Source of the DNA: Pseudanabaenales cyanobacterium
GTDB taxonomy: Bacteria; Cyanobacteriota; Cyanobacteriia; Pseudanabaenales; Pseudanabaenaceae
Direction: 5' to 3'
DNA: 32,000 nucleotides
NCBI GenBank assembly: GCA_038230875.1
Contig: JBBRMK010000008.1
Location: 18,815-50,814 of the forward strand
The notes beneath the pieces are model-generated. The model ran no database searches. It had not been told where the DNA came from and saw only the letters and a list, made by a program, of their open reading frames with translations. The first letter of the stretch is position 1; each line of letters opens with the position of its first letter. Positions 4,943 through 25,136 of the stretch are shown here, one piece after another. Both the position numbers and the translations under genes were made by a program.

Positions 4943-5767
4943 TTACCGAGCCTCAGGAGAGGGGGTAATACGCTTGGGAGAGGGAATAAGGTAAGCAACT
5001 ACTGCACCACCGACAAACCCTGCGACATTGCGAACAATGGGAACCCATTCACTAGTCCTTGTCAAAACGGGACCAAGACCGAAAGAGATAAACAACATTC
5101 CCCATAGCGGCGTGAAAATTAGCGCCCATTTCCATGCAAAGATCTCGCCTTCTTTGCGCGGATGCCCTGCAAAACCAAAGATGATGCCACCAACAATTGA
5201 AGTGATTAGGGTAAGAATCCATTGCTCTTGAGGAATACCAGGGACGGCTATGCAGCCGTCTTGATCTAAACAAGTGGCGATCGCATCAATAGAGGACAAA
5301 ATTGATTGAGCATGTCCCTGTTCGCGCACATAAAACTGATTGCCATAACGTGATTGCAACTCAATCCAAAAGCCCCGTGATAGCAGGGGATACACTGCAT
5401 CGCCAACGCTAAAGTTGAGTAAATTACGTCCGCGTGAGTCTGCAACTAGCATCACACTGGCATTGTCTAGTCCCCAAAATTCTTTGACTGCTCGACCAGG
5501 AGTGCGATCAACTTGAGTGAGTACTCGCAATTTCCAGCCTGTTTTATCTTCAAATTCTGTCAGTTTTTGATCCAAAGCCAATTCTTCCGAATCAGTTAGG
5601 AATCGTCCTAAATCAATCACATTTGTATATTTTTCAGGCAGCAACTCTGGCGCGTCAAAAGCATGGGCAGCAGGTATATGAATAAAAGCGATCGCTAACG
5701 GCAGAAAAAAGGCGATCGCCAAAGTTATAAATCTTTGAAAAATTTTTGGAAAAGTTAATTTGTACAT
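4943..5767 (-). CDS. TPM (TLP18.3/Psb32/MOLO-1-like) domain membrane protein
   Basis: 274 aa. An N-terminal signal/anchor is followed by a region resembling TPM phosphatase-type domains (VIDLGRFLTDSEELALDQKLTEFEDKTGWKLRVLT..MLVADSRGRNLLNF). The C-terminus has hydrophobic helices. Confidence 0.55.
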   Translation of the reverse strand: MYKLTFPKIFQRFITLAIAFFLPLAIAFIHIPAAHAFDAPELLPEKYTNVIDLGRFLTDSEELALDQKLTEFEDKTGWKLRVLTQVDRTPGRAVKEFWGLDNASVMLVADSRGRNLLNFSVGDAVYPLLSRGFWIELQSRYGNQFYVREQGHAQSILSSIDAIATCLDQDGCIAVPGIPQEQWILTLITSIVGGIIFGFAGHPRKEGEIFAWKWALIFTPLWGMLFISFGLGPVLTRTSEWVPIVRNVAGFVGGAVVAYLIPSPKRITPSPEAR

Positions 5768-5868
5768 AAGTATTTATTATAAAGAGCGTCTTAATATTTC
5801 TTAATATCTTAGCAGGGGTATATAGTTTAAATAACTCTTCTCAGTATTTTTAGTAGTATTTTTAATTA

Positions 5869-6708
5869 ATGGCAAGCCCAATTCAGTGGTATCCCGGACA
5901 TATAGCTAAAGCTGAAAAACAATTGTTAGAACAGCTTAAGTTAGTGGATGTAGTAATTGAAGTGCGTGATTCGCGCATTTTAATGTCTAGTAAACATCCA
6001 AAAATTGAAAAGTGGGTGGAAGGCAAGTCTCATATTTTGGTGTGCAATCGCATTGATGCCATATCTTCGAGCGTAAAATCTCAATGGATGCGCTGGTTTA
6101 CTGAGCAAGAGCGCATCGCCTACTTCACCGACGCACAGGCTGGCAAAGGTATGGTGGATTTACTAAAAGCTGCCCAAGTGGCAGGCGAAAAGGTAAATGA
6201 ACGGCGGCACGGTCGAGGAATGTTGCCGCGTCCAGTGCGCGCCGTGGTAGTAGGATTTCCAAATGTGGGTAAATCAGCGTTAATCAATCGGTTGCTCAAT
6301 AAAAAGGTAGTTGCTAGTGCGAATCGTCCAGGGGTAACCCGTCAATTGCGCTGGATCAGAATTTCCGATCAGATCGAATTACTAGATACGCCTGGCGTAA
6401 TCCCTCCTTTGCTGCACGATCAAGATGCGGCGATGAAATTAGCTATTTGTGATGATATCGGACAGGCTGCTTACGACAATGTATTGGTAGCAGCCGAAGC
6501 AGTAGATCTGTTGATCAAATTAAATGTGAAATTAAGCAGTCGTTACATTATCGATCCGCAGACCGTGACTTCAGGGATTGAATATATTCACCAAGTCGCT
6601 ACTTTAAATAAGTTTCAAGGTGATTTAGATAAAGTTGCGAGGTTGATTTTATATGATTTTCGCAAAGGTAAGTTAGGTGCGATCGCTTTAGAGATGCCGC
6701 CATTCTAA
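5869..6708 (+). CDS. rbgA: Ribosome biogenesis GTPase A (YlqF/RbgA), circularly permuted GTPase
   Basis: The N-terminus is WYPGHIAKAEKQL. The G4-like CNRID precedes G1 GFPNVGKSALIN and G3 LLDTPGV, which is the permuted order typical of RbgA. 279 aa. Confidence 0.9.
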   Translation: MASPIQWYPGHIAKAEKQLLEQLKLVDVVIEVRDSRILMSSKHPKIEKWVEGKSHILVCNRIDAISSSVKSQWMRWFTEQERIAYFTDAQAGKGMVDLLKAAQVAGEKVNERRHGRGMLPRPVRAVVVGFPNVGKSALINRLLNKKVVASANRPGVTRQLRWIRISDQIELLDTPGVIPPLLHDQDAAMKLAICDDIGQAAYDNVLVAAEAVDLLIKLNVKLSSRYIIDPQTVTSGIEYIHQVATLNKFQGDLDKVARLILYDFRKGKLGAIALEMPPF

Positions 6709-6824
6709 ATTTGCATATAGTTCGATTTATCAGAAAGATATTTTTTGCTAGCTTTACCTAGAGATCTGCATAGAAGGTGATCGATTGAGTGATAATAAGT
6801 TGCTTAAATGAAGCTTAAAGGATT

Positions 6825-9430: not shown

Positions 9431-9937
9431 TATTTACTGATAATCCAATACAATTTAATCACTTCTTAATTGGCAGTAACAAAGATTTTTTGCGGAGCAG
9501 TTTTGATGAGAATGCAAAAGTCAGTTAATTGTGTCTGCAAAGAGTCTGTTATGATCGTGTTTTAATAGATTGTGGATAAGCTAACATTCAGCCTTTCGCT
9601 TCGCGATTGGATGATAAAGTAGTCTGGGATTTTTTACTTTAATTGCTCTGCTTGGCATCTGGCATGAAACTTTTTAATAATTTATCTGATTTATTCTATT
9701 TAAGCTTCTATCATCCCCAATATAATTATTACGAAGATTGCTATGAAGACAATGAAGAATTTGATGAGTATAGTAATACTATCTTGGAATTAAAAAATAA
9801 GGAAGAATATGTAATTAATTTCTTTCTTAAAGAATTTAGAAGTTTTCTAAGTGATGAAGATATAGCCATTGTTACCGTGCCATCTGGTAAATCCACTAAT
9901 ATATATTCAGGTATTCGTGAATTATCTAAAAGATTAG

Positions 9938-11010
9938 TTAGTTTATATACCAATTGGTCTTCAGGATGTTATGGTTCTCATTCTCGGTCTTCCAACGCGC
10001 TCTAGCTGATTCAACGACTTCTACAACATTGTCTGGAGCGATAGTGTGATTGGTGATAAACGCATTGTAATATACTACCGAACCATCTTTGGTATCTAGA
10101 ATCGTGAGTTCACACCAGTTCACCAGTAACGATGGTTGCTGGTCTCGTAATCGAATCTGATTCACAAATCGATAATTGTATATTTTTTGTGACTTTCTTT
10201 GCTTATATTTTGTGCTAAAACTTTGGACTCCTCCATTTTTGTCCAAGTATTCTAGCCACTCATATAACTGGGATGGCTAGATGCTAAACAGGTAAAGATA
10301 AAGTTCATAGCAGTATCTAAACAATGCTGACACATTGGCTGACGACTATAGAGATCGTCCCCTAAAAGCGTCACTGCTTGACCTTTAAACAGATGCCGAT
10401 GATGGCTAATCCAGCGTTTCGCGGCGGCTGTTTCACAATCTTGTTTGTCATGTCCATCTTGCGGTACAACCAATTCTGGTGGTAAAGATATTACTTCTTT
10501 ACAGTTAGGCGCTACGATCACTGGCAAAATCGCAGTGTGTGAGTATGTTACCTTGCCATTGCTATGGTTGCGAATACTACAACACTCACAGGAGATTTTT
10601 GCGGAACTATGATACTGGGTTCCATCCAAACAAATCAATAAGTTCCCACATAGTCTTTCGTAACTTTTTAGATGCTTTCCTAATTGTAGAAATTGATAAA
10701 CTCGCTCAAACACTCTGTTCAGGCTATTTGCCTTAATTAAATCAAGGATGTTCCGTGTTTGTGGGTCGCTTGGTATTTTCTCTAATCCAAATATACTTTG
10801 GACATTATCTTTACCCATTCGACTATACATTTGTCTTTGATGTTCTAAGAATGATTCGCATTGCATGAAGAACATTGAAAATGCGGCAAGCATCACATCA
10901 CTGACTTTATATTTTGTGGCTTTACTTGCCTCACGAGGATCTTTAATCTCACTGATCGTCTCGTGCAGAAACCCTAAAATAATACCGAAAATCAACACTA
11001 TTCGTTGCAT
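9938..11010 (-). mobile_element. Decayed IS remnant: DDE transposase gene (IS4/ISNCY-like), frameshifted and 3'-truncated
   Basis: Two ORFs (10252-11010 and 9938-10246) are in different frames. The second frame already reads SQLYEWLEYLDKNGG upstream of its listed start, so there is a single indel near 10262-10275. Homology ends after ARARWKTENENHNILKT (~9957), with no normal C-terminus. No terminal inverted repeats were identified. Confidence 0.65.
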
Positions 11011-14572: not shown

Positions 14573-15925
14573 TTATTTCAACCATCCTAAAGCTGTCTGT
14601 ACCAGTAGCCATACATTTAAACTGACAATAATCACGGCAACTGCGCTAGCTACAACCTTTAGCCAAAGCGGATTCACAAACTCACCCATCAAACGGCGAT
14701 CGCTAGTAAACATAATCAGTGGGATCACCGCAAATGAAAGTTGCAAGCTCAAAATTACTTGACTAAATACTAATAATTGGCCTGTACTTTGCTCACCGAA
14801 GAAAATGATCGCAATTAGAGCAGGAACAATCGCGATCAGTCGAGTTAATAATCGCCGCAGCCAAGGTTGAAGCCGTAGGTTTAAAAAGCCTTCCATTACG
14901 ATTTGTCCAGCCATGGTTGCGGTTAAAGTTGAGCTTTGCCCAGATGCTAACAGCGCAAAACCAAAAATTGCACTAGCAGCACCCACACCTAGCAAAGGTG
15001 ACAGCAATTTGTAGGCATCCTGAATTTCAGCAACCTCCTGATTGCCCGAAAAATGAAACGTTGCCGCCGCCACAATTAGGATCGCCGCGTTAATAAATAG
15101 TGCTAATGACAAAGCCACAGTGGAATCGATTGTGCCAAATTTGATCGCTTCCCACTTCTTTTCGGGAGTGTTCTGCCATGCACGAGTTTGCACGATCGCT
15201 GAATGCAAATAAAGATTATGTGGCATCACGGTTGCTCCCAAAATCCCCACTGCGATGTAGAGCATTGGCAAGTTCTGGACAATTTGATGATTTGGTACAA
15301 ATCCCATCAAGATGCTACCCACATCAGGGCGCGAGAAAATGATTTCTGCTGTAAAACATCCTGCGATTGTGGCAACTAAGGTAATCACCAAAGCTTCGAT
15401 ATAACGAAATCCCTTACTTTGTAATAACAGCACCACAAGCACATCTAGCGCCATAATGCACACGCCCCAGAACAGAGGAATACCAAACAGCAATTGCAGG
15501 GCGATTGCGCTTCCCAATAATTCGGCGAGATCACAAGCAGCGATCGCAATTTCGCATATCACCCATAGCCCAAAATTTATGCGCGGACTAAAATAATCTC
15601 GACAGGTTTGAGCCAGATCGCGCCCCGTTGCCACACCTAAACGAACACACAAAGATTGCAGCAAAATTGCCATCAAATTTGACAACAAAATCACACTTAG
15701 TAATATGTAGCCAAATTTTGAGCCGCCAGCAATATCGGTCGCCCAATTGCCAGGATCCATATAGCCAACTGAGACTAAGTATCCAGGACCTGCATAAGCC
15801 ATCATCTTTCGCCAAAAACCTTTACCGTCAGGAATAGCGATCGTGCGATGCACCTCTGGTAAACTAGGGCGTTTTTCTGCGACTGTCATTCCAGAACCAC
15901 CTTTCATAATCGTTTCATAATTCAA
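14573..15925 (-). CDS. mntH: Nramp-family divalent metal (Mn2+/Fe2+) transporter MntH
   Basis: 450 aa and polytopic. Nramp signatures are present: GPGYLVSVGYMDPGNWATDIAGGSKFGY, LGATVMPHNLYLHSA and LASGQSSTLTATMAGQIVMEGF. The true start may be one of the downstream Met codons. Confidence 0.9.
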   Translation of the reverse strand: MNYETIMKGGSGMTVAEKRPSLPEVHRTIAIPDGKGFWRKMMAYAGPGYLVSVGYMDPGNWATDIAGGSKFGYILLSVILLSNLMAILLQSLCVRLGVATGRDLAQTCRDYFSPRINFGLWVICEIAIAACDLAELLGSAIALQLLFGIPLFWGVCIMALDVLVVLLLQSKGFRYIEALVITLVATIAGCFTAEIIFSRPDVGSILMGFVPNHQIVQNLPMLYIAVGILGATVMPHNLYLHSAIVQTRAWQNTPEKKWEAIKFGTIDSTVALSLALFINAAILIVAAATFHFSGNQEVAEIQDAYKLLSPLLGVGAASAIFGFALLASGQSSTLTATMAGQIVMEGFLNLRLQPWLRRLLTRLIAIVPALIAIIFFGEQSTGQLLVFSQVILSLQLSFAVIPLIMFTSDRRLMGEFVNPLWLKVVASAVAVIIVSLNVWLLVQTALGWLK

Positions 15926-16082
15926 TTTATGATAGTTGACAATCTAAAAAAGAAACTTTAATGAAAGAAAATATTTATGATTCAGTCCCTACTTTTATTG
16001 ATCGCGTTGTCCCTGATAAGTTTGACCTATCGGTGGTTGGATTGTATTTTTAGGCGTATTGGTCATTATGTACACCCTCAAA

Positions 16083-16187
16083 TACAGCAGATTGCGAACA
16101 AAGAACGACAATATTTTCGTAAAAGCCCAGCTTTGCGGGGCTTTTACAAAAATCTGGGTTTGGTTTATTCTCAATCTGCAGTAAGAA
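16083..16187. repeat. MITE-like element, family 2, copy c (diverged)
   Basis: tacagcagattgcgaacaaag...aaaagcccagctttgcggggcttttacaaaaatctgggtttggtttattctcaatctgcagtaa aligns with 16583-16688. Confidence 0.7.
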
Positions 16188-16318
16188 GACTAATCGAGCA
16201 TTTACTCAAACGTTGTTATGTTCCATTACCAGAATGCTATGTCAGTTGGCAAAGAGAAATTAGAGCTTTTTATAACGATATCAAAGATATTTTAGAAGAT
16301 GCGCCTAGTTTAAAAACT

Positions 16319-16466
16319 GATGTTACGTGGAGCGAAAATTACCCCTCATCCCCCAACCCCTTCTCCCGCAGGAGAAGGGGAGCAAAACCCAAATTATTTT
16401 CTTGTTCCCCTCTCCTGCGGGAGAAGGGGTTGGGGGTGAGGGCTTTAGAAACTTCCACGTAACATC
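16319..16466. repeat. MITE-like element, family 1, copy b (inverted relative to copy a)
   Basis: The termini gatgttacgtgga / tccacgtaacatc are perfectly complementary. The interior acccctcatcccccaaccccttctcccgcaggagaagggg ... cccctctcctgcgggagaaggggttgggggtgagggct matches the reverse complement of 12335-12485. Confidence 0.85.
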
Positions 16467-16582
16467 AGTAAAAAATCAAATCGCTGAAATCTTGCCCAAG
16501 GTGTTTGAGAATGCTCTTGCCTCTATGAGAGAAGAATATCCGCAAGTAAATTCCCCTGATTCTTGGCTTGATAATTGCGATG

Positions 16583-16688
16583 TTACAGCAGATTGAGAAC
16601 AAACCCACCACTAGATTTTTTATAAAAGCCCCGCGAAGCGGGGCTTTTATAAAAAATCTGGGTTTGGTTTGTTCGGGATTTGCTGTAA
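16583..16688. repeat. MITE-like element, family 2, copy b
   Basis: ttacagcagattgagaacaaacccaccactagattttttataaaagccccgcgaagcggggcttttataaaaaatctgggtttggtttgttcgggatttgctgtaa is a near-perfect hairpin. Confidence 0.85.
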
Positions 16689-16734
16689 TAACATCTTAAA
16701 TCGTAATTTTTTGGGAAATTAATCAGCCCTAAGG

Positions 16735-16810: not shown

Positions 16811-17105
16811 GGTACTTTTATTGTTAGAGATCACCTAAGGATCGCATTGTTGGTTTTGGTGAAGATTTTGTTGTGATTAAAATCAGTGTAAAAAACAACA
16901 ATATTCAAAAGAGAAAGAGTGCGGAGTATTGATTGGTTTGTCAGATTGAGTCACCTGTCTGCGTGCTTTCGTTAACGATTTACTTGAAGAGCGATCGCGA
17001 TGCTATTAGTGCATCGGAAGTCTTGGATATTTTGTCTTCTATCGCTTATGGTGAATAGGCGATCGCTAGCTTAAAAAATTACTTTCCTAGTTCGTTATTT
17101 TGTAA

Positions 17106-17227
17106 TGTTATGATCAATCTGATCCAAAGAAGTTTACGGTTGAGGCGATCGCGTAGAACAAGTTAGTGCAAGAAAAGTAAATGCTAATGGTGATGCTATT
17201 TTTAAGATCGCTCAAAGAGTTAATTAG
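17106..17227 (+). pseudogene. Internal-deletion remnant of the 153-aa tail-motif protein gene (module copy 1)
   Basis: The remnant keeps the upstream leader (taatgttatgat) and the stretch acggttgaggcgatcgc, which matches 19442-19456 of the intact gene. It then jumps to gtagaacaagttagtgcaagaaaagtaaatgctaatggtgatgctatttttaagatcgctcaaagagttaattag, which matches 19745-19819. The junction lies in a GCGATCGC site. The retained tail reads ARKVNANGDAIFKIAQRVN*. Confidence 0.7.
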
Positions 17228-17251
17228 ATTGCAAGGCTGGAGGTTAGAGAT

Positions 17252-17683
17252 ATGGAAGAGTTGTTAGAGCTTAAGGAATTGCTCATTGGCGGGAATATTT
17301 CTGATGCTTTGCTGTTGGTAGAGGAGATGACGGAGATGAGTAAGGATGACAAACTGAATAAGATTTTCAGTTTCAGTATTATCGTTCTACTGCATTTAAT
17401 TAAGCAATCTGCTGAAAAGCGATCAACGCGATCATGGGAAATGTCGATCTCTAACTCTTTAAAACAAATTCAGCGCTCCAATAAACGGCGTAAGGCAGGT
17501 GGGAACTACCTAATCGAAGCAGAGATAAGAGAAACTCTTGAGGATGCTTATGAAACTGCTTTAAATCAAGCTTCTTTGGAGGCGTTTGAAGGCAGATATG
17601 AGGTGTCGGCAATCGCGGCAATGGTCGATCACTCGGCAATTATTGACAAGGCGATCGCTCTAATTTCTAGTGGTGAAGCGTGA
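17252..17683 (+). CDS. DUF29-like helical protein, paralogue 1
   Basis: 143 aa and intact. The segment LVEEMTEMSKDDKLNKI..LLHLIKQSAEKRSTRSWEMSI..IQRSNKRR parallels the DUF29 pattern (LIEEIE.MGRSE...LL.HLLKW.....RS.SW...I...R.EI). The first 38 aa are nearly identical to paralogues 2 and 3. Confidence 0.6.
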   Translation: MEELLELKELLIGGNISDALLLVEEMTEMSKDDKLNKIFSFSIIVLLHLIKQSAEKRSTRSWEMSISNSLKQIQRSNKRRKAGGNYLIEAEIRETLEDAYETALNQASLEAFEGRYEVSAIAAMVDHSAIIDKAIALISSGEA

Positions 17684-17857
17684 GCTAGTCATAGATTACC
17701 CTATACTCGCGATGATATTAGTACATCGGAAATCTTGGATATTTTGGCTTCTATTTCTGATGATGAGTAGGCGATCACTATGTTTAGAAAATCGCTTTTC
17801 TGTTTTGTTATTTTGTAATGTTATGATTGTTTCCATTAAAGTTATAAAAATACGGCT

Positions 17858-18319
17858 ATGGCAGATCCTTTAACGGCTGAGGCGTTGGTGGTATTGGCGG
17901 CTTAGAAGTTTGTTGAGTCAAGTGCTGGAGAACTCGCTAAGAAATTTACGACTGAGGCGATCGCAAAGATTCCTGACCTATGACAGCAAATCAAAAATAA
18001 GTTACAGGGTAGATCTGCCAAGGTTGATGAGGCTTTGGTTAAGTTGGAATCGGGCGATCAAAGTGCCATTGATACAATTACCAAAAATCTCGATGTGGTG
18101 TTGGATGAAGATGAAACTTTTGCGTCACTGTTGCAAAAATTGGCTAAGGAAATTAATACAGGGAAAATTAGTCAAGTTGGTTTAAATGGTATTACTGCGA
18201 ATCGAGTAGCGGCGGAAATTGTACAAGATGCTAAGGGTGATCGCGTAGAGAAAATTGGTGCGAGGGATGTAAAAGCGACTGGCGATACGGTTTTTAAAAT
18301 CAAGCAAAATGTAGATTAG
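17858..18319 (+). pseudogene. Tail-motif small protein gene, module copy 2, with two in-frame stops
   Basis: The frame is collinear with 19358-19819 over its full length, but it has TAG at 17903-17905 and TGA at 17981-17983 (TGG in copy 3). The C-terminal tail is intact: IGARDVKATGDTVFKIKQNVD*. Confidence 0.8.
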
Positions 18320-18336
18320 GCTGCGAGGTTAGGAAT

Positions 18337-18768
18337 ATGGAAGAGTTATTAGAACTTAGAGAACTGCTGATTGGTGGCAATATTTCTGATGCTTTGCTGT
18401 TGGTGGAGGAGATGACGGAAATGAGCAAGGATGACAAACTAAATAAGATCTCTAGTTTTGCGAAGATTCTCCTTCTCCATTTAATTAAGCGTCAAGCCGA
18501 AGAAAAGACAACAAGATCGTGGGATGCTTCGATTGATAATGCGGTGTATGAGATTCAGAAAACTAATCGCAGACGGAAGGCTGGAGGTGCTTATCTTTCG
18601 GCTGAAGAGTTGAGGGAGGCGGTGGCGGATGCCTATAGGGTTGCCATGTCTGGCGCGGCGGCAGAAGCTTTTGGCGGTTGCTATACGGTCACGCAACTAG
18701 CGGCAATGGTCGATCGCTCTGCAATTATTGACAAAGCGATCGCTTTAGTTTTTGGCGGAAATGCGTGA
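18337..18768 (+). CDS. DUF29-like helical protein, paralogue 2
   Basis: 143 aa and intact, with the same architecture as 17252-17683 and 19844-20275. Confidence 0.6.
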   Translation: MEELLELRELLIGGNISDALLLVEEMTEMSKDDKLNKISSFAKILLLHLIKRQAEEKTTRSWDASIDNAVYEIQKTNRRRKAGGAYLSAEELREAVADAYRVAMSGAAAEAFGGCYTVTQLAAMVDRSAIIDKAIALVFGGNA

Positions 18769-18827
18769 ACTAACCACAGACTCCCTCATCCATCTAATAA
18801 CATTGAGACTATACTCATCGCGAAGAT

Positions 18828-19317
18828 ATGATTGCAGTGGAAGTCTTAAATATTTTGGCTTCTATTGGTAGGAATGAGAGAGCAGAATATGGTTCAAGGT
18901 TGTTAACTCGATTATCACGGGATTTGAAAACAGCTTATGGTAAAGGCTTTAGTCGTCGCAATGTTTTGGACATGCGCCGCTTTTATGTTAGTTATTCAAA
19001 ATGGCAGATGGTGTCTGCCAAATTAGGTTGGTTACATTACACAGAGCTTTTAGCTATTTCAGATGATTTGGCGCGATCGTTTTATGAGCAGCAATGCATA
19101 CGCGATCGCTGGAGTGTGAGGGAATTAAAGCGTCAGAAGGATTCGGCTTTGTTTGAAAGAGTTGCCATGAGTAAGGATCGAGCTGAGATTTTAGCTTTGG
19201 CTCAGAAAAGATAGAAAATCGAGTCAATTTTTTGTGTCGAGATATCAGCTTTATTTGCCTAATGTGGAAGTTCTGAAGCAGGAGTTAAGGCGGCTTTTGG
19301 ATGAGTGCGATCGCTAA
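18828..19317 (+). pseudogene. Decayed YhcG/DUF1016-type (PD-(D/E)xK nuclease family) gene: N-terminal domain plus C-terminal tail, core deleted
   Basis: The 128-aa ORF reads RAEYGSRLLTRLSRDLKTAYGKGFSRRNVLDMRRFYVSY...WLHYTELLAISDDLARSFYEQQCIRDRWSVRELKRQ, which looks like a DUF1016 N-terminal domain. After a stop, YQLYLPNVEVLKQELRRLLDE (19243-19317) resembles the family's C-terminal end. Short 5' fragments of the same gene recur at 16999-17057 and 17711-17770. Confidence 0.55.
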
Positions 19318-19319
19318 TG

Positions 19320-19348
19320 TTATGATTTAATTTCATCCAAGTTATAAA
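19320..19348 (+). promoter_or_regulatory. Putative sigma70-type promoter of the module (short or absent leader)
   Basis: TTATGA (19320-19325), a 17-nt spacer, then TATAAA (19343-19348), about 10 nt before the GTG start. The same taatgttatgat...gttataaaaata block precedes copy 2 (17813-17852), and its first part precedes copy 1 (17103). Confidence 0.3.
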
Positions 19349-19357
19349 AATATAGTT

Positions 19358-19819
19358 GTGTCAGATCCCATAACGGCTTCAATATTGGTAGGTTTGGCTG
19401 TTCAAAAGTTTGTGGAGTCAAGCGCGGGAGAACTCGCTAAGAAATTTACGACTGAGGCGATCGCAAAGATTCCTGAGCTATGGCAACAAATCAAAAATAA
19501 GTTGCAGGGCAAATCTTCCAAGGTTGATGAGGCTTTGGTGAAGTTGGAAGCGGGCGATCGCTCTGGTATTGATACTGTGACAAAAAATCTGGATGTGGTG
19601 TTGGATGAGGATGAGGCTTTTGCGAAACTGGTGCAAAAGTTGGCGCAGGAAATCAATTCAGGGCAAATTTTACAGGTAGGTTTAGAGGGAATAACGGCGA
19701 ATCGGGTCGCGGCGGATATTGTGCAGGATGCTAAAGGCGATCGCGTAAAGCAGATTGGTGCAAGGGATGTCAATGCGACTGGTGATGCTGTTTTTAAAGT
19801 TAAACAAACCAAAGATTAG
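19358..19819 (+). CDS. Small helical protein with hydrophobic N-terminal helix and C-terminal strand-like motif (candidate Bell/HeLo-like effector); module copy 3, intact
   Basis: 153 aa with a GTG start where copy 2 has ATG. The N-terminus is SDPITASILVGLAVQKFVESSAGELAKKF, the middle is helical and acidic, and the tail is GDRVKQIGARDVNATGDAVFKVKQTKD. No enzymatic motif is present. A 136-aa antisense ORF covers it but has no support. Confidence 0.65.
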   Translation: MSDPITASILVGLAVQKFVESSAGELAKKFTTEAIAKIPELWQQIKNKLQGKSSKVDEALVKLEAGDRSGIDTVTKNLDVVLDEDEAFAKLVQKLAQEINSGQILQVGLEGITANRVAADIVQDAKGDRVKQIGARDVNATGDAVFKVKQTKD

Positions 19820-19843
19820 GCTGCAAAGCTAGAGGTCGAAGCT

Positions 19844-20275
19844 ATGGAAGAGTTATTAGAATTACGGACATTGCTGATTGGTGGCAATGTCTCCGATGCT
19901 TTGTTATTGGTGGAGGAGATGACTGAGATGAGTAAGGATGACAAGCTGAATAAAATTTATAGCTTTGCAAAAGTCTTATTACTTCATCTCATCAAACAAC
20001 AAGCGGAAAATCGCACTACAAGGTCATGGGATCTGTCAATCAAAAATGCGGTAAGGGAAATTCAGCGAACCAATCAACGACGTAAGGCTAAAGGAAATTA
20101 TTGCGAACCTTCAGAACTACGAGAGACCTTGAAAGATGCCTATGACATTGCTTTAGATTTGGCTGCTACTGAGGCGTTTGGTGGACATTATGAATCGGCG
20201 GAGTTGGGTGCGATGGTCGATCGCGATCGCATAATTCAAAAGGCGATCGCTTTAATTTCTGGAGATAATGTGTGA
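19844..20275 (+). CDS. DUF29-like helical protein, paralogue 3, translationally coupled to the NB-ARC gene
   Basis: 143 aa. Its stop TGA (20273-20275) overlaps the GTG start (20272-20274) of the next gene within GTGTGA. Confidence 0.6.
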   Translation: MEELLELRTLLIGGNVSDALLLVEEMTEMSKDDKLNKIYSFAKVLLLHLIKQQAENRTTRSWDLSIKNAVREIQRTNQRRKAKGNYCEPSELRETLKDAYDIALDLAATEAFGGHYESAELGAMVDRDRIIQKAIALISGDNV

Positions 20276-22254
20276 GCGAACAGCAAATTAATCAAACAGG
20301 ATTTAAAGATGTCTCGGTTGGTGGTAATCTCACTGCCAATCTTGATCAAAGCGTCAATAAAACGGTTATTCATCAAGCTCCAAAATCCTATCAGCCAATT
20401 CCTGATAACCTGCGGCAGGGTTCCAAAAACTTTGTGGGACGAGAGGAGGAACTTGCGGATATTCATACAAAACTGCAAGAGGGTCAGGGTGTGATCGTCT
20501 GTGCGGTGGAGGGGATGGGCGGTGTCGGTAAGACGGAACTGGCGCTGCAATATGCAAATCGCTATCAACAGGAATATGTGGCGCGGTATTGGTTGTCCTT
20601 GCGGGAGATGGGATTAGCTCAAGCATTGGTAACAATGGCTAGTCCTTATCTTGATTTACCCGAATCGATGCAGTCGGCAAGTCTAGAGGAACAAGCAGCA
20701 TGGTGTTGGCAAAACTGGTTGCCTGAGGCTGACAAGTTATTAGTGATTCTCGATGATGTGCCGAGGGCGGAGAGTATTCCTGATCTGGCGATGCCCATCG
20801 ATCCGCGTGTACGGGTATTGGTGACAACGCGAGAACGGGAATTGAATGTGGGTTTTGAGTCTGTGCCTCTGGATGTGCTGTCAGAGGAGAAGTCTCTGGA
20901 ACTGTTAAGAAAAATAGTTGGCGTGGCAAAGGTTGAGAAGGAACTCGTCACGGTTAAGGAGATTTGCAACACTTTGGGCTATTTGCCCTTGGGTATCGAG
21001 TTAATCGGTGAATATCTGAGCAAAAATCGTCATCTGACTTTTGCCAAGTTACAAGAAAAGTTACATCTTGCCGATGAGTCAATTTCACGCGATCGCAAAG
21101 GTAAGTTTTATGGCTATCGTGGTGTGGAGGCAGCAATCCAACTGAGTTGGGATGACATCAATACTGGCTCTCAGGGAGTGGCGATGTTGTTGGGGCTGTT
21201 TGCGCCTGTGGAGATTTTGTGGGAGTTGGTGGCAGCAATTGGAGCAAAAGCCAAAATTACGGAAGATGAACTGAATGAGGCAAGAGGACAGTTAGACAGT
21301 TTGCATTTGATGCAACCTGTTGATGATGAATGCAACTTTTATAAGATTCATACGGTAGTCCGCGAGTTCTTTCGTGCCAAGCTATTAAAAGCTGAAGAGA
21401 ATCATCAGTTTCGGCAAGCATTTGTGACTGGTTTACTGACAATTGCTAAAATGATACCCTCATCGCCAACGAGAGTTTTGATTGCATCGGTAGCTCCTGC
21501 TATTCCTCATTTGGATATGCTGAGTCGCGAGATGCTGGATGATATTCCTAACCCTGATGAAAATAACAATTTGGTTTGGGCATTTTTAGGAACTGCGAAA
21601 TTTTATGAAGGACAAGGACTATACGCATTAGCCGAAGATTCTTCTCAAAGATGTTTGACTTCTGTTCGAGAACTGTTAGGAGATCGCCATCCCATTGTCG
21701 CCATTAGTATCAACAACCTCGCAGCGCTGTACGATTTGCAAGGGAGATATGCAGAAGCAGAACCACTCTATCAAGAGGCGATGCAGTTGATGCGAGAACT
21801 GTTAGGAGATCGCCATCCCGATGTCGCCACCAGTCTCAACAACCTCGCAGGGTTGTACGAGTCTCAAGGGAGATATGCAGAAGCAGAACCACTGTATCAA
21901 CAAGCCCTCGCTTTGAGGCAAGAACTGTTAGGCGATCGCCATCCCGATGTCGCCATTAGTTTCAACAACCTCGCATTGCTATACCATTTGCAAGAGAGAT
22001 ATACAGAAGCCGAGCCACTCTATCAACAAGCCCTCGCTTTGAGGCAAGAACTATTAGGCAATCGCCATCCCTCTGTCGCTGGAAGTTTGTTTAATCTAGC
22101 GGGGCTTTATTACCAGATGCAAAGATATTCCGAAGCGATGATTTTGATTCAGAGAGCGATTCAGATTTATCAGCAAACCCTCGGCAACGATCATCCAAAT
22201 ACCAAAGCCGCTATGAGTTGGCTACAACCGATCAAGGAAAAAGTAGAAAGGTAA
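20272..22254 (+). CDS. STAND NTPase: short N-terminal motif + NB-ARC domain + TPR (kinesin-light-chain-type) repeats
   Basis: 660 aa. Walker A is GMGGVGKT (20512-20535), Walker B is LLVILDDV, then VLVTTRE and the GLPL-like GYLPLGIEL. The C-terminus has 5-6 TPRs of the LGDRHPDVATSLNNLAGLYESQGRYAEAEPLYQQAL type. Only ~55 aa precede the NTPase domain. Confidence 0.85.
   Translation: MSEQQINQTGFKDVSVGGNLTANLDQSVNKTVIHQAPKSYQPIPDNLRQGSKNFVGREEELADIHTKLQEGQGVIVCAVEGMGGVGKTELALQYANRYQQEYVARYWLSLREMGLAQALVTMASPYLDLPESMQSASLEEQAAWCWQNWLPEADKLLVILDDVPRAESIPDLAMPIDPRVRVLVTTRERELNVGFESVPLDVLSEEKSLELLRKIVGVAKVEKELVTVKEICNTLGYLPLGIELIGEYLSKNRHLTFAKLQEKLHLADESISRDRKGKFYGYRGVEAAIQLSWDDINTGSQGVAMLLGLFAPVEILWELVAAIGAKAKITEDELNEARGQLDSLHLMQPVDDECNFYKIHTVVREFFRAKLLKAEENHQFRQAFVTGLLTIAKMIPSSPTRVLIASVAPAIPHLDMLSREMLDDIPNPDENNNLVWAFLGTAKFYEGQGLYALAEDSSQRCLTSVRELLGDRHPIVAISINNLAALYDLQGRYAEAEPLYQEAMQLMRELLGDRHPDVATSLNNLAGLYESQGRYAEAEPLYQQALALRQELLGDRHPDVAISFNNLALLYHLQERYTEAEPLYQQALALRQELLGNRHPSVAGSLFNLAGLYYQMQRYSEAMILIQRAIQIYQQTLGNDHPNTKAAMSWLQPIKEKVER
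21670..22173 (+). repeat. Four tandem 126-bp (42-aa) TPR-coding units with high nucleotide identity
   Basis: Unit starts (gaactgttagg/gaactattagg) are at 21670, 21796, 21922 and 22048. Long identical runs such as gatcgccatcccgatgtcgcc and agatatgcagaagcagaaccact are shared between units. Confidence 0.9.
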
Positions 22255-22267
22255 AAGTTAAAAGGAA

Positions 22268-22681
22268 ATGGCAAAAGATTTATTTCATGATGCAGTCAAA
22301 AATGCCCTAATCAAAGATGGTTGGCAGATTACTGATGACCCATTCTTCTTGAAAGTTGGAGGTGTTGAACTTTATATCGATCTAGGAGCCGAAAAACTCA
22401 TTGCCGCCGAACGCAATAATGAAAAAATCGCCGTAGAGATCAAAAGTTTTATCAATCCTTCATCGCTAACGGACTTTCATCTAGCGATCGGACAATTTCT
22501 TAACTATCGAGTAGCATTAAAAGCAAGAGAGCCAGAACGCAAACTATTTTTAGCAGTTCCAAATACTGCCTACGCCAGCTTTTTCCAAAAAGAGTTTGCC
22601 TATATGGTTATTGCTGAATATCAATTGGAAATTTTTGTTTACGATATCGAAAATGAGGTAATTGTCACATGGAAAATCTAG
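22268..22681 (+). CDS. xisH: XisH family protein (fdxN-element excision controlling factor-like)
   Basis: MAKDLFHDAVKNALIKDGWQITDDP...IAAERNNEKIAVEIKSF closely follows the Anabaena XisH pattern. It starts 13 nt after the NB-ARC gene stop. Confidence 0.85.
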   Translation: MAKDLFHDAVKNALIKDGWQITDDPFFLKVGGVELYIDLGAEKLIAAERNNEKIAVEIKSFINPSSLTDFHLAIGQFLNYRVALKAREPERKLFLAVPNTAYASFFQKEFAYMVIAEYQLEIFVYDIENEVIVTWKI

Positions 22682-23013
22682 AAAAAATTGCTAAATATCG
22701 CACCATCATCAAAGAGATTTTGGGACACTATGCCTCCTATAAACCCTCTCATGGCGAGATCGAGATCCAGTTTCTATCGGATACAGAACATGATCACTAT
22801 CAAGTATTAGGTGTGGGATGGGATCAAAAAACACGAGTTTACGGTTGTTCCATGCACTTAGATATTAAAAATGGCAAAATTTGGATTCAAATCAACAATA
22901 CCGAACTTGATATTGGTCAAGCCTTAGTCGAAAAGGGTGTGCCAAAAGAAGATATTGTCATCGGTTTTCAGCCCGTTTATATTCGCCAAGTTTCAGGCTA
23001 TGCGATCGCCTAA
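22669..23013 (+). CDS. xisI: XisI family protein, copy 1
   Basis: 114 aa with YGCSMHLDIKNGKIWIQINNTELDIGQALVEKGVPKEDIVIGF. It overlaps xisH by 13 nt. Confidence 0.85.
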   Translation: MENLEKIAKYRTIIKEILGHYASYKPSHGEIEIQFLSDTEHDHYQVLGVGWDQKTRVYGCSMHLDIKNGKIWIQINNTELDIGQALVEKGVPKEDIVIGFQPVYIRQVSGYAIA

Positions 23014-24301: not shown

Positions 24302-24511
24302 ATGACCATCAAAGAACAACTCATTCAAGAAGTAGAAACATTTCCTGATGCACTCCTAGCCGAAGCCCTCGACTTTGTGCTATTTCTCAAAACCCGTTAT
24401 ATCGATACCGAAATCACCACCGAAGAACAAGACACGATCCTCGCATCTCAATCCGCCTATGAGCTAGGAGACTACCTCACCCTCGAACAATACGCATCAA
24501 GTCAGGCATGA
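24302..24511 (+). CDS. Putative antitoxin of the RelE-type toxin
   Basis: 69 aa and acidic. It has a 4-nt overlap (ATGA) with the downstream toxin, and a DUF2281-like N-terminus (IQEVETFPDALLAEALDFVLFLKTRY). Confidence 0.55.
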   Translation: MTIKEQLIQEVETFPDALLAEALDFVLFLKTRYIDTEITTEEQDTILASQSAYELGDYLTLEQYASSQA

Positions 24512-24762
24512 GCTATCAAATTATTATCCCCAAACCAGTTCAAAAGCAACTAGATAGCTTGCCGAAAACTCAACGCGATCGAGCAATTATGGCAATGCGA
24601 TCGCTTACTAACGAGCCACGACCAACTGGAGTCAAAAAGCTCAAAGGCTACGATGAAACTTATCGGATTAGATTTGGCGATTATCGCGTCATTTACAAAG
24701 TTCAAGACAAAGAGCTAATCATTCTGTTACTGAGTGTTAGCCACCGCAAAGATGCTTACTAA
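24508..24762 (+). CDS. RelE/StbE-family toxin
   Basis: 84 aa with IPKPVQKQLDSLPK, PRPTGVKKLKGYDETYRIRFGDYRVIYKVQDKELIILLLSVSHRKDAY. Confidence 0.8.
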   Translation: MSYQIIIPKPVQKQLDSLPKTQRDRAIMAMRSLTNEPRPTGVKKLKGYDETYRIRFGDYRVIYKVQDKELIILLLSVSHRKDAY

Positions 24763-24791
24763 TCACAAAAGAGATATGAGGTGATTGTCAC

Positions 24792-25136
24792 ATGGAAAAT
24801 CTAGAAAAAATCGCCAAATATCGCACCATCATCAAAGAGATTTTGGGACACTATGCCTCCTACAAACCATCTCATGGCGAGATCGAGATCCAGTTTCTAT
24901 CAGATACAGAACACGATCACTATCAAGTATTAGGCGTGGGATGGGATCAAAAAACACGAGTTTACGGTTGTTCCATGCACTTAGATATTAAAAATGGCAA
25001 AATTTGGATTCAAATCAACAATACCGAACTTGATATTGGTCAAGCCTTAGTCGAAAAAGGTGTACCAAAAGAAGATATTGTCATCGGTTTTCAGCCCGTT
25101 TATATTCGCCAAGTTTCTGGCTATGCGATCGCCTAA
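24792..25136 (+). CDS. xisI: XisI family protein, copy 2 (protein identical to copy 1)
   Basis: The 114-aa translation is identical to copy 1. There are 10 nucleotide differences, all synonymous third-position changes. Confidence 0.85.
   Translation: MENLEKIAKYRTIIKEILGHYASYKPSHGEIEIQFLSDTEHDHYQVLGVGWDQKTRVYGCSMHLDIKNGKIWIQINNTELDIGQALVEKGVPKEDIVIGFQPVYIRQVSGYAIA

Follow-up and report, generated by a model that had tools for sequence, protein, structure and literature searches.

A threefold effector-DUF29 array as the probable front end of a Bell/NLR amyloid-signalling operon in a Pseudanabaenales cyanobacterium

Why would a cyanobacterium keep three small genes of the DUF29 family ahead of a single NLR gene when two of the three effector genes beside them are broken? 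The locus that raises this question lies in a 32,000-nucleotide (nt) stretch of a Pseudanabaenales cyanobacterium genome (assembly GCA_038230875.1, contig JBBRMK010000008.1, positions 18,815 to 50,814 of the forward strand), called the window below. Open reading frame (ORF) listing, repeat finding and a three-way alignment delimited three tandem units at about 16990-20300, each composed of the element TAATGTTATGAT, a small-protein gene or its remains, and a DUF29 gene of 143 codons. The array ends on its 3' side at the start of an NB-ARC/TPR NLR gene. Judged from the sequence, a Bell/NLR amyloid-signalling operon for cell death probably has its front end here, with an accessory polymorphic DUF29 protein and purged surplus effectors. 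Related loci in other genomes, metagenome contigs and plasmids carry our labels L001-L153. The units and the NLR gene consist of the following features.

17103..17114, + strand: TAATGTTATGAT of unit 1, extended -10-like, putative promoter; exact copy, conserved in relatives
17115..17227, + strand: Bell-effector stub of unit 1; 5' part gone, 279-nt internal out-of-frame deletion joined at GGCGATCGC (HIP1)
17252..17683, + strand: DUF29 gene 1, class D1, an orphan without intact effector (Pfam DUF29, E=4.6e-8)
17816..17827, + strand: promoter-like element TAATGTTATGAT of unit 2; exact copy, conserved in relatives
17858..18319, + strand: Bell-effector pseudogene of unit 2; full length and collinear without frameshift, interrupted by TAG at 17903 (codon 16) and by TGA at 17981 (codon 42)
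18337..18768, + strand: DUF29 gene 2, class D2 (Pfam DUF29, E=6.5e-8)
19315..19326, + strand: promoter-like element TAATGTTATGAT of unit 3; exact copy, conserved in relatives
19358..19819, + strand: intact putative Bell-domain effector, 153 amino acids (aa), GTG start; helical domain at residues 1 to ~104, then a C-terminal two-repeat amyloid-like motif
19844..20275, + strand: DUF29 gene 3, class D3 (Pfam DUF29, E=2.7e-8), 24 nt after the effector stop
20272..22254, + strand: NB-ARC/TPR NLR, 660 aa, GTG start (Pfam NB-ARC, E=3.1e-19; TPR_12, E=4.9e-77)

An earlier note on this DNA had described three units with DUF29 starts at 17252, 18337 and 19844 ahead of the NLR, a leader in every unit, and a graded decay of the small-protein gene from a stub in the first copy through two stop codons in the second to an intact third; ORF listing and alignment bear out all of this.

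The identity of the small protein is the first part of the answer. It has 196 homologues, the nearest named relatives being Pseudanabaena, and in 59 loci from species-representative genomes it lies almost always directly 5' of an NB-ARC NLR gene. In the alignment, the first ~104 residues form a conserved helical domain and the last ~45 residues occur in at least three alternative versions, each of which resembles the N-terminus of its partner NLR. For the GWQTKVEGGTAYIG version, which is BASS9, matched effector/NLR pairs had a mean score of 65 and mismatched pairs scored 21-24; a bass_09 pair of Pseudanabaena sp. SR411, our L011, is listed in Table S2 of Dyrka et al. (2020, 10.1101/2020.01.06.895854). 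The effector of the window starts with MSDPITASILVGLAVQKF, and its residues 1-104 are ~80% identical to the Bell protein of L011. Because of this identity to a listed Bell/BASS9 protein, it can be taken by homology as a Bell-domain effector. Its AlphaFold2 model (predicted local distance difference test score, pLDDT, 71) has six helices at residues 7-101 followed by four strands; the strands, predicted at residues 105-152 with pLDDT 55-65, are the sole indication of an amyloid fold. Foldseek comparison of the effector and DUF29 models with the PDB gave nothing at E<0.8 or at a template modelling (TM) score >0.38, so neither protein is assigned a fold and Bell membership is judged by sequence. 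Likewise, PDB sequence searches with single sequences and profiles gave nothing at E<0.1, exact-sequence look-ups of the small protein returned no record, and NCBIfam and PADLOC yielded only chance-level matches to the small protein and DUF29 (E=0.002-0.02, including Aga_HEPN at 0.022). A phage origin is not supported, because PHROGs gave one weak match of unknown function (E=0.0024) and a viral-contig scan found no relative.

A collinear NB-ARC/TPR gene lies within 5 kb of the effector, the NLR being 452 nt downstream on the same strand. The effector tail of unit 3 contains two pseudo-repeats, QVGLEGITANRVAADIVQ and QIGARDVNATGDAVFKVKQ, and the NLR protein, which begins MSEQQINQTGFKDVSVGGNLTANLDQ, carries at residues 7-26 one copy of a motif, NQTGFKDVSVGGNLTANLDQ, that matches the effector tail. 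An ungapped position-specific scoring matrix, built only from effector tails, was ranked against the 60-residue N-termini of 1623 ORFs. N-termini of NLRs or NLR remnants occupied ranks 1-16 of 1623 with the repeat-2 model and ranks 1-2 with the repeat-1 model. The NLR of the window ranked 16 of 1623, every higher rank being another NLR of this kind, and BASS9 and BASS3 NLRs used as controls ranked at 153-1281. These rankings suggest that effector tails and NLR N-termini share a motif, a likeness that is weak for the pair of the window alone. In an exact-string check, GDAVFK, QIGAR, ANRVAA, GGNLTAN, FKVKQ, QVGL and NQTG were absent from Table S2 of Dyrka et al. (2020), which covers BASS1-10, with BASS11 and later families outside it. 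Since these strings are missing there, the motif of the window appears to be an unlisted BASS-like motif, and it does not seem to belong to the described BASS1-11 families. Two observations concern the receptors themselves. The TPR region of the NLR gene at 21667-22109 is made of 126-nt tandem repeats, and the protein has 660 aa compared with 784 aa in the L004 orthologue, which suggests that the number of sensor-domain repeats varies. In addition, the NLR of L068 has two consecutive motifs at its N-terminus (9892-10060), KQTALENVTAGGDVNANISQ, which resembles the motif of the window, and then EPNKLAEKIGIAVSGGVVNV, which is BASS5-like; this receptor might address two kinds of effector tail.

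The best-supported reading is that the locus is a Bell/BASS-type amyloid-signalling NLR operon that would add an unlisted two-repeat motif, an embedded polymorphic DUF29 gene and a front-end array to what is known. Like the pairs reported by Dyrka et al. (2020), it has a filamentous cyanobacterial host and a motif that recurs at the N-terminus of a collinear NB-ARC/TPR protein. It differs from them in that the tail strings QVGL...IVQ and QIGARDV...FKVKQ are not among BASS1-10 of Table S2, the motif comes in two pseudo-repeats, three copies of the effector-DUF29 part form an array, and a DUF29 gene stands between effector and NLR, which are adjacent or overlapping in that study. Fungal HET-S/NWD2-type pairs similarly combine a two-pseudo-repeat effector, a single N-terminal copy in the NLR and polymorphic loci, but they come from another kingdom, their motif is unrelated in sequence and no DUF29-like gene lies between the partners. 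In the E. coli Bab/Agp antiphage abortive infection system, amyloid templating by the sensor switches on the effector, and cell death follows (Ibarlosa et al., 2024, 10.1101/2024.11.07.622273). Its motif differs from that of the window, it has neither a third gene nor an array, and it is antiphage, whereas the window is known from sequence alone.

The second part of the answer concerns DUF29. The three 143-aa products score 33.8, 33.3 and 34.6 bits against a gathering cut-off of 22.5 for PF01724, which is also the precomputed Pfam assignment for 119 of the 120 listed DUF29 homologues; the earlier description of three DUF29-like genes, all open at 143 codons, is thus confirmed. The stop codon of DUF29-3 overlaps the NLR start (GTGA), with the same spacing and overlap in L002, L004 and L008, and both the 3-25 nt spacer between effector and DUF29 and the 4-nt overlap with the NLR start are conserved. 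We also took a context-blind sample of 80 metagenome loci picked by DUF29 similarity alone, comprising 22 DUF29 sequence lineages and 81 genes. Ten of these lineages (~45%) adjoin a Bell-type effector, an NB-ARC gene or both, BASS3 (RHIM-like) pairs included. Several apparently stand-alone DUF29 copies are relics of effector loci, because a 3' remnant of the effector remains beside them. In Table S2 of Dyrka et al. (2020), Pseudanabaena and Anabaena pairs are listed with gaps of 466, 476 and 906 nt, sizes that would fit DUF29-like inserts; the 476-nt gap, with a single gene in it, separates OYQ63525.1 and OYQ63523.1, a BASS5 pair of Pseudanabaena sp. SR411. PF01724 is expanded in cyanobacteria, and the near-invariant first 38 residues seen here are the most conserved core of the family. 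The 143-aa subfamily of the window, with its MEELLEL... N-terminus, is set apart by its repeated embedding in Bell/NLR operons and its cassette-like hypervariable core; a literature search found no paper describing such a subfamily. The AlphaFold2 model of DUF29 gene 3 is confident and all-helical (pLDDT 89.6, seven helices).

Selection on the DUF29 genes was then considered, since the earlier note had read them as retained while extra effector copies were lost. In line with its account of a nearly invariant N-terminus, the first 38 residues differ at only 1-5 positions and the remainder is 57-64% identical. Among the three paralogues, the ratio of nonsynonymous to synonymous substitution (dN/dS) is 0.01-0.04 in codons 1-38 and 0.14-0.20 in the remainder, and the two parts differ in the proportion of nonsynonymous differences (pN) at p <=7e-6. 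Over the whole gene pN is 0.21-0.22 and the synonymous counterpart (pS) 0.67-0.73, that is, synonymous sites are saturated. Within codons 1-38 pS is still 0.54-0.65, which shows that this segment is conserved at the protein level and not by recent gene conversion; a nucleotide-level recombination or RNA element as the cause of the invariant N-terminus was rejected on the same grounds. The D1 class provides a further test of constraint. DUF29-1 of the window shares 83-87% identity with its metagenomic orthologues from L072, L073 and L074, and all four loci are without an effector and carry Bell remnants of differing lengths. These four independent copies nevertheless have dN/dS of 0.06-0.10 at dS 0.25-1.2 (Fisher p 2e-10 to 1e-23). 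DUF29-2 is 91% identical to the DUF29 of L006, a Bell-DUF29-HicAB-NLR locus (dN/dS 0.17 at dS 0.28), and the comparisons of D2 with L006 and of D3 with L001 or L008 gave 0.17-0.21. All three DUF29 genes are therefore under purifying selection, the orphan lineage included.

The divergence of the DUF29 genes is not evenly spread. Across six class representatives, mean identity is 88% at residues 1-38, 72% at 39-82, 58% at 83-126 and 63% at 127-143. In a sliding-window comparison of L002 and L003, identity is 90-97% through Bell and the start of DUF29, falls to 61-71% in the core, and is back at 94-100% where DUF29 ends and the NLR gene starts; L004 versus L005 and unit 3 versus L005 gave similar profiles. 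The core (codons ~40-126) is a discrete hypervariable cassette that has been swapped by recombination between near-identical loci in other strains, and the three DUF29 genes of the window represent three ancient classes that differ in the core between conserved ends. Which core class a locus carries bears no relation to its effector family, NLR clade or motif variant: one DUF29 class follows either Bell or an unrelated 160-aa effector, EFF2 (L060, L068), the same class precedes NLRs whose NB-ARC is 31% (L002) or 88% (L004) identical to that of the window, and Bell genes that are almost identical go with different DUF29 classes (L002, L003). This lack of linkage suggests that an influence external to the operon shapes the core, or that the core is imported by gene conversion from genomic paralogues. 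The earlier suggestion of a specificity, immunity or adaptor role for DUF29 thus stands in part: the recombined hypervariable core supports specificity and is compatible with the specificity/adaptor idea, and immunity specific to the effector is disfavoured, because the class is independent of effector family, orphans are constrained and many close relatives stand alone.

How the surplus effectors were lost can be read from the pseudogenes. The window has 63 sites of the HIP1 octamer GCGATCGC where 0.5 would be expected, at 17059, 17145, 17957, 19457, 19554 and 19737 among other positions. The unit 1 stub was recognised by three-frame translation and unit alignment, together with the HIP1 sites at 17059 and 17145, and GCGATCGC is found at the deletion junctions of both this stub and L073. 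The unit 1 effector was lost through deletions between GCGATCGC repeats. At the two stop codons of unit 2, seven orthologues carry CAA or CAG and TGG. Bell copies 2 and 3 have dS 0.58 and dN/dS 0.21, which indicates that copy 2 was functional for most of its history and was inactivated late in relation to their divergence. GTG is the start codon of the one intact Bell effector, and 7 of 7 compared orthologues begin with ATG; this start may reflect reduced translation or a first step of decay. Loss of the effector with retention of an intact DUF29 gene, the pattern that the earlier note had picked out, recurs in L047, L068-71, L072-74, L078, L087, L118 and L150. L068-71 have an array of their own in the order DUF29-EFF2-DUF29-HicBA-NLR, and L075, L132 and L149 hold others. 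That dosage or toxicity limits the effector, as the earlier note suggested, is plausible.

The age and construction of the array bear on whether it is a triplication at all. Unit-to-unit nucleotide identity is 67-83% over 700-1000 nt, far beyond chance, in the alignment of the three units that the earlier note had proposed. That the units are related therefore holds. That the triplication is recent and arose in place does not: synonymous divergence between the DUF29 genes has reached saturation, and every unit has its closest counterpart in another genome, unit 2 being 86% identical in nucleotides to L006, unit 3 91% to L001, and unit 1 81% to L073/L074, against 67-82% between the units in this comparison. 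Copy number differs between relatives, as a proposed comparison showed: Pseudanabaena sp. lw0831 has one unit (L004: yhcG remnant-Bell-DUF29-NLR-XisH-XisI), L074 has two (Bell remnant-DUF29-relE 3' end-intact yhcG-Bell...) and the window three. The array is old, variable and partly assembled from distinct haplotypes, and its units are mosaic. The copies are 17-33% divergent, too much for an assembly duplication, and two independent metagenome contigs, L073 and L074, carry the same inter-unit junction; the array is not an assembly artefact.

The TAATGTTATGAT element marks each unit. Its three exact copies in the window (17103, 17816, 19315) compare with a mean of 0.26 in dinucleotide shuffles, none of 100 shuffles reaching three. 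A TGTTATGAT or TGTTATTAT form is kept ~40 nt 5' of Bell genes in L001-L020, regardless of tail type, and the TGTTATGAT element is still present in both units with a degenerate effector. The TGTTATGAT within the leader, TGTTATTAT elsewhere, is likely an extended -10-like promoter element. A scan for sigma-70 promoters and terminators found fewer sites in the real than in shuffled sequence, and the element stands out by conservation alone. Scans of the window against Rfam and for tRNA genes gave no match.

Between and around the units lie remnants of two further genes and two junctions.

16840..17058, + strand: relE-family toxin pseudogene with an in-frame stop (68% aa identity to L073:433-798 over 72 residues)
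17684..17770, + strand: inter-unit junction 1; ~20 nt beyond the DUF29 stop, followed by the 22 terminal relE codons (17705-17770)
18769..18866, + strand: inter-unit junction 2 with a relE 3' remnant joined in frame to yhcG (from alignments and the intact L074 yhcG N-terminus)
18828..19317, + strand: yhcG (PD-(D/E)XK nuclease, DUF1016) pseudogene; N-domain fragment 18828-19214, C-terminal piece 19234-19317

The earlier note had placed a yhcG 5' fragment in every unit. The piece repeated at the 5' edge of the units (16995-17078, 17707-17790, 18818-18901) proved instead to be the last ~20 codons of a relE-family gene, to whose 3' end the unit 1 and unit 2 pieces align, and yhcG occurs in unit 3 only (DUF1016_N, E=1.8e-33, 18828-19214). 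The relE assignment rests on the intact orthologue L073:433-798, which matches Pfam RelE PF06296 (E=2.8e-6, 28 bits against a cut-off of 27), and the pseudogene also matches a P. galeata plasmid gene annotated as a RelE/ParE toxin. Unit 2 retains 22 relE codons (17705-17770) and unit 3 ~13, fused in frame to yhcG at codon ~52. The yhcG pseudogene is 94% identical in nucleotides to the intact 335-aa gene L074:6606-7613 and has lost the first ~51 codons and an internal block; the start of its ORF is chimeric, because the intact L074 N-terminus differs and exposes the relE fusion. It also matches plasmid genes annotated as PDDEXK nucleases, and yhcG homologues were found on Pseudanabaena and Nostoc plasmids. 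The spacers fall into two types, a native relE-Bell spacer in units 1 and 2 (as in L006 and L010) and a yhcG-Bell spacer in unit 3 (as in L001 and L074). The sequence of junction 1 recurs at junction 2 and in L073 and L074 in the alignment, and all of these, in the window as in L073 and L074, go back to a single ancestral junction between the region following the DUF29 stop and the relE 3' end. The ~20 nt following the DUF29 stop may come from the 5' end of an NLR gene, the match being too short for certainty.

The array is set in a stretch rich in toxin-antitoxin genes. An Nramp transporter gene at 14573-15925 (- strand) forms the left border of the island. At 15977-16700 there is a fourth, canonical DUF29 gene (Pfam E=1.9e-8, residues 66-125 of ORF 15977-16462), apparently broken by small palindromic inserts resembling miniature inverted-repeat transposable elements, with repeats at 16083-16187 and 16584-16691 and at 16358-16380 and 16407-16429. 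Downstream of the array, xisI is duplicated (22653-23013 and 24776-25136; 97% nucleotide identity over the 300 nt compared, identical 114-aa product), and a DUF2281 and ParE toxin pair lies at 24302-24762. An XisH/XisI pair directly 3' of the NLR is also found in L004, L011, L012 and L018. In a widely sampled Pseudanabaena locus, indexed in 250 blocks (L060-L067, L097, L099), EFF2 (5515-5997) and DUF29 (6001-6432) are intact and only a 110-aa remnant of the NLR is left (6429-6761), with its N-terminal motif kept. The 217-kb plasmid pPg_02 of P. galeata CCNP1313 (L152/L153) has a 145-aa gene whose DNA matches the Bell region of the window, followed by a TPR protein gene. These two genes span the plasmid origin (216185-216622 and 1-3402) with no DUF29 between them; the opposite strand has a DUF29 gene of its own 2.5 kb upstream.

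Taken together, these data show a live operon ordered as promoter-like element, two-repeat Bell effector, DUF29 and an NB-ARC/TPR NLR with one motif copy, preceded by two older promoter-Bell-DUF29 modules that were made by duplication or recombination reusing one junction. By analogy to published BASS systems, the NLR would oligomerise once a trigger is sensed, and its N-terminal motif would template the effector tail into an amyloid fold. As in the systems of Dyrka et al. (2020) and Ibarlosa et al. (2024), this templating might release the membrane-targeting Bell domain and lead to cell death. DUF29 would be a co-expressed polymorphic accessory subunit, acting as specificity determinant or regulatory gate, whose variable core recognises something outside the operon. 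The array would then give one effector/NLR pair three DUF29 specificities, and surplus copies of the dangerous effector would have been purged. A polymorphic specificity or regulatory subunit is the role that we prefer for DUF29. We further propose, tentatively, that amyloid-signalling NLR systems of bacteria may have in this subfamily a third component that has gone unrecognised. Its N-terminal face would be constant, and its variable core, exchanged like a cassette, would set what the system responds to or gate templating, so that specificities could be stacked and surplus lethal effectors discarded.

Several results weigh against this proposal. The tail and NLR N-terminus of the window share only 6 of 19 identities, and 81 of 2000 shuffles reached their local alignment score; in addition, a profile hidden Markov model of the tail repeats retrieved no NLR N-terminus at a significant E-value. 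In the context-blind sample, 12 of 22 DUF29 lineages (62 of 81 genes) lie away from any effector or NLR, which implies that DUF29 can be maintained by itself. Relatives also have HicAB or MNT/HEPN modules in the slot between effector and NLR (L001, L006, L009, L013, L047, L068-71, L126, L141), sometimes together with DUF29; in L013 the module is a nucleotidyltransferase with a HEPN/DUF86 protein and in the others HicA/HicB. Such occupants suggest that the slot may merely tolerate passengers. The confident DUF29 model has no fold match in the PDB by Foldseek, no site with dN/dS above 1 appeared in the pairwise DUF29 analyses, and a literature search on DUF29 (PF01724, IPR002636) found no functional work and one incidental mention, of self-activation in a yeast two-hybrid assay. 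Finally, the stop codons of unit 2 are known from one assembly.

The main rival takes up some of these points. DUF29 could be an autonomous passenger gene in a defence island or one rich in toxin-antitoxin genes, and the array a by-product of local duplication and recombination. The gene would have inserted time and again between effector and NLR, or travelled with that space, and would be conserved for its own function without a role in NLR signalling. Beyond the lineages without effector or NLR and the toxin-antitoxin modules in the same slot, it would account for close DUF29 relatives (70-77% identity) that stand alone beside housekeeping, Uma2 or VapBC-type genes, for the independence of the DUF29 class from every neighbour, for the constraint on effector-less orphans and for the fourth, canonical DUF29 pseudogene outside the array. 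It fits less well with the ~45% of context-blind lineages found in Bell/NLR loci, which make up a tiny share of the genome, and with an association that covers two effector families and at least two motif classes. The operon-like spacing, with a stop-start overlap kept across NLRs sharing only 31% NB-ARC identity, and the effector 3' remnants beside several stand-alone copies also speak against it, and we regard it as rather unlikely.

Two other explanations carry less weight than an autonomous passenger. In orphan toxin-immunity arrays such as those of contact-dependent inhibition (CDI; cdiA-CT/cdiI) and Rhs systems, tandem divergent cassettes with a truncated toxic part and an intact small adjacent gene recombine at conserved flanks. 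The array of the window resembles them in pairing truncated toxic parts with intact small genes in tandem cassettes, and differs in that its cassettes lie upstream of the main gene rather than downstream and its effector is intracellular. By this analogy, DUF29 might be a cognate antidote, an immunity protein or antitoxin, to the Bell effector upstream, and the orphans leftover immunity genes. Its place immediately downstream of the effector, 3-25 nt away, and the effector remnants next to intact DUF29 genes would agree with this. The analogy fails because the retained DUF29 does not co-vary with the effector: one class follows the unrelated N-domains of Bell and EFF2, different classes accompany the near-identical Bell genes of L002 and L003, and DUF29 shows neither the co-variation nor the obligatory pairing with a toxin of a type II antitoxin or cognate immunity protein. 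Moreover, most Bell/NLR pairs in the 59 loci are without any DUF29, the orphan D1 lineage is under purifying selection long after effector loss, and the effector appears to lack a secretion signal, without which immunity to the effector of a neighbour would not be useful; together these points make an antidote improbable. Still less credible is the reading that the array is a neutrally decaying duplication, or an assembly artefact, with the DUF29 frames open by chance. Two of the three effector copies are indeed dead, relE and yhcG are pseudogenes as well, and the stop codons come from a single assembly. Against this stand three DUF29 ORFs of exactly 143 codons despite saturation, orthologue dN/dS of 0.06-0.21 (Fisher p 1e-7 to 1e-23), divergence between copies that an assembler could not create, and the junction common to two independent metagenome contigs.

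Amyloid-motif bacterial NLRs have so far been described as two-gene systems, and here a third gene, from the large DUF29 family, recurs among them. DUF29 has several hallmarks of the specificity determinants of conflict systems, including ancient discrete classes, a core recombined between conserved flanks and selective retention after the death of the effector. If DUF29 does not feed into the NLR, the locus is a clear natural example of effector purging through HIP1-repeat deletion while the neighbours persist. If it does, the view of sensing or safety control in these systems would change, and DUF29, a family abundant in cyanobacteria, would gain its first functional context.

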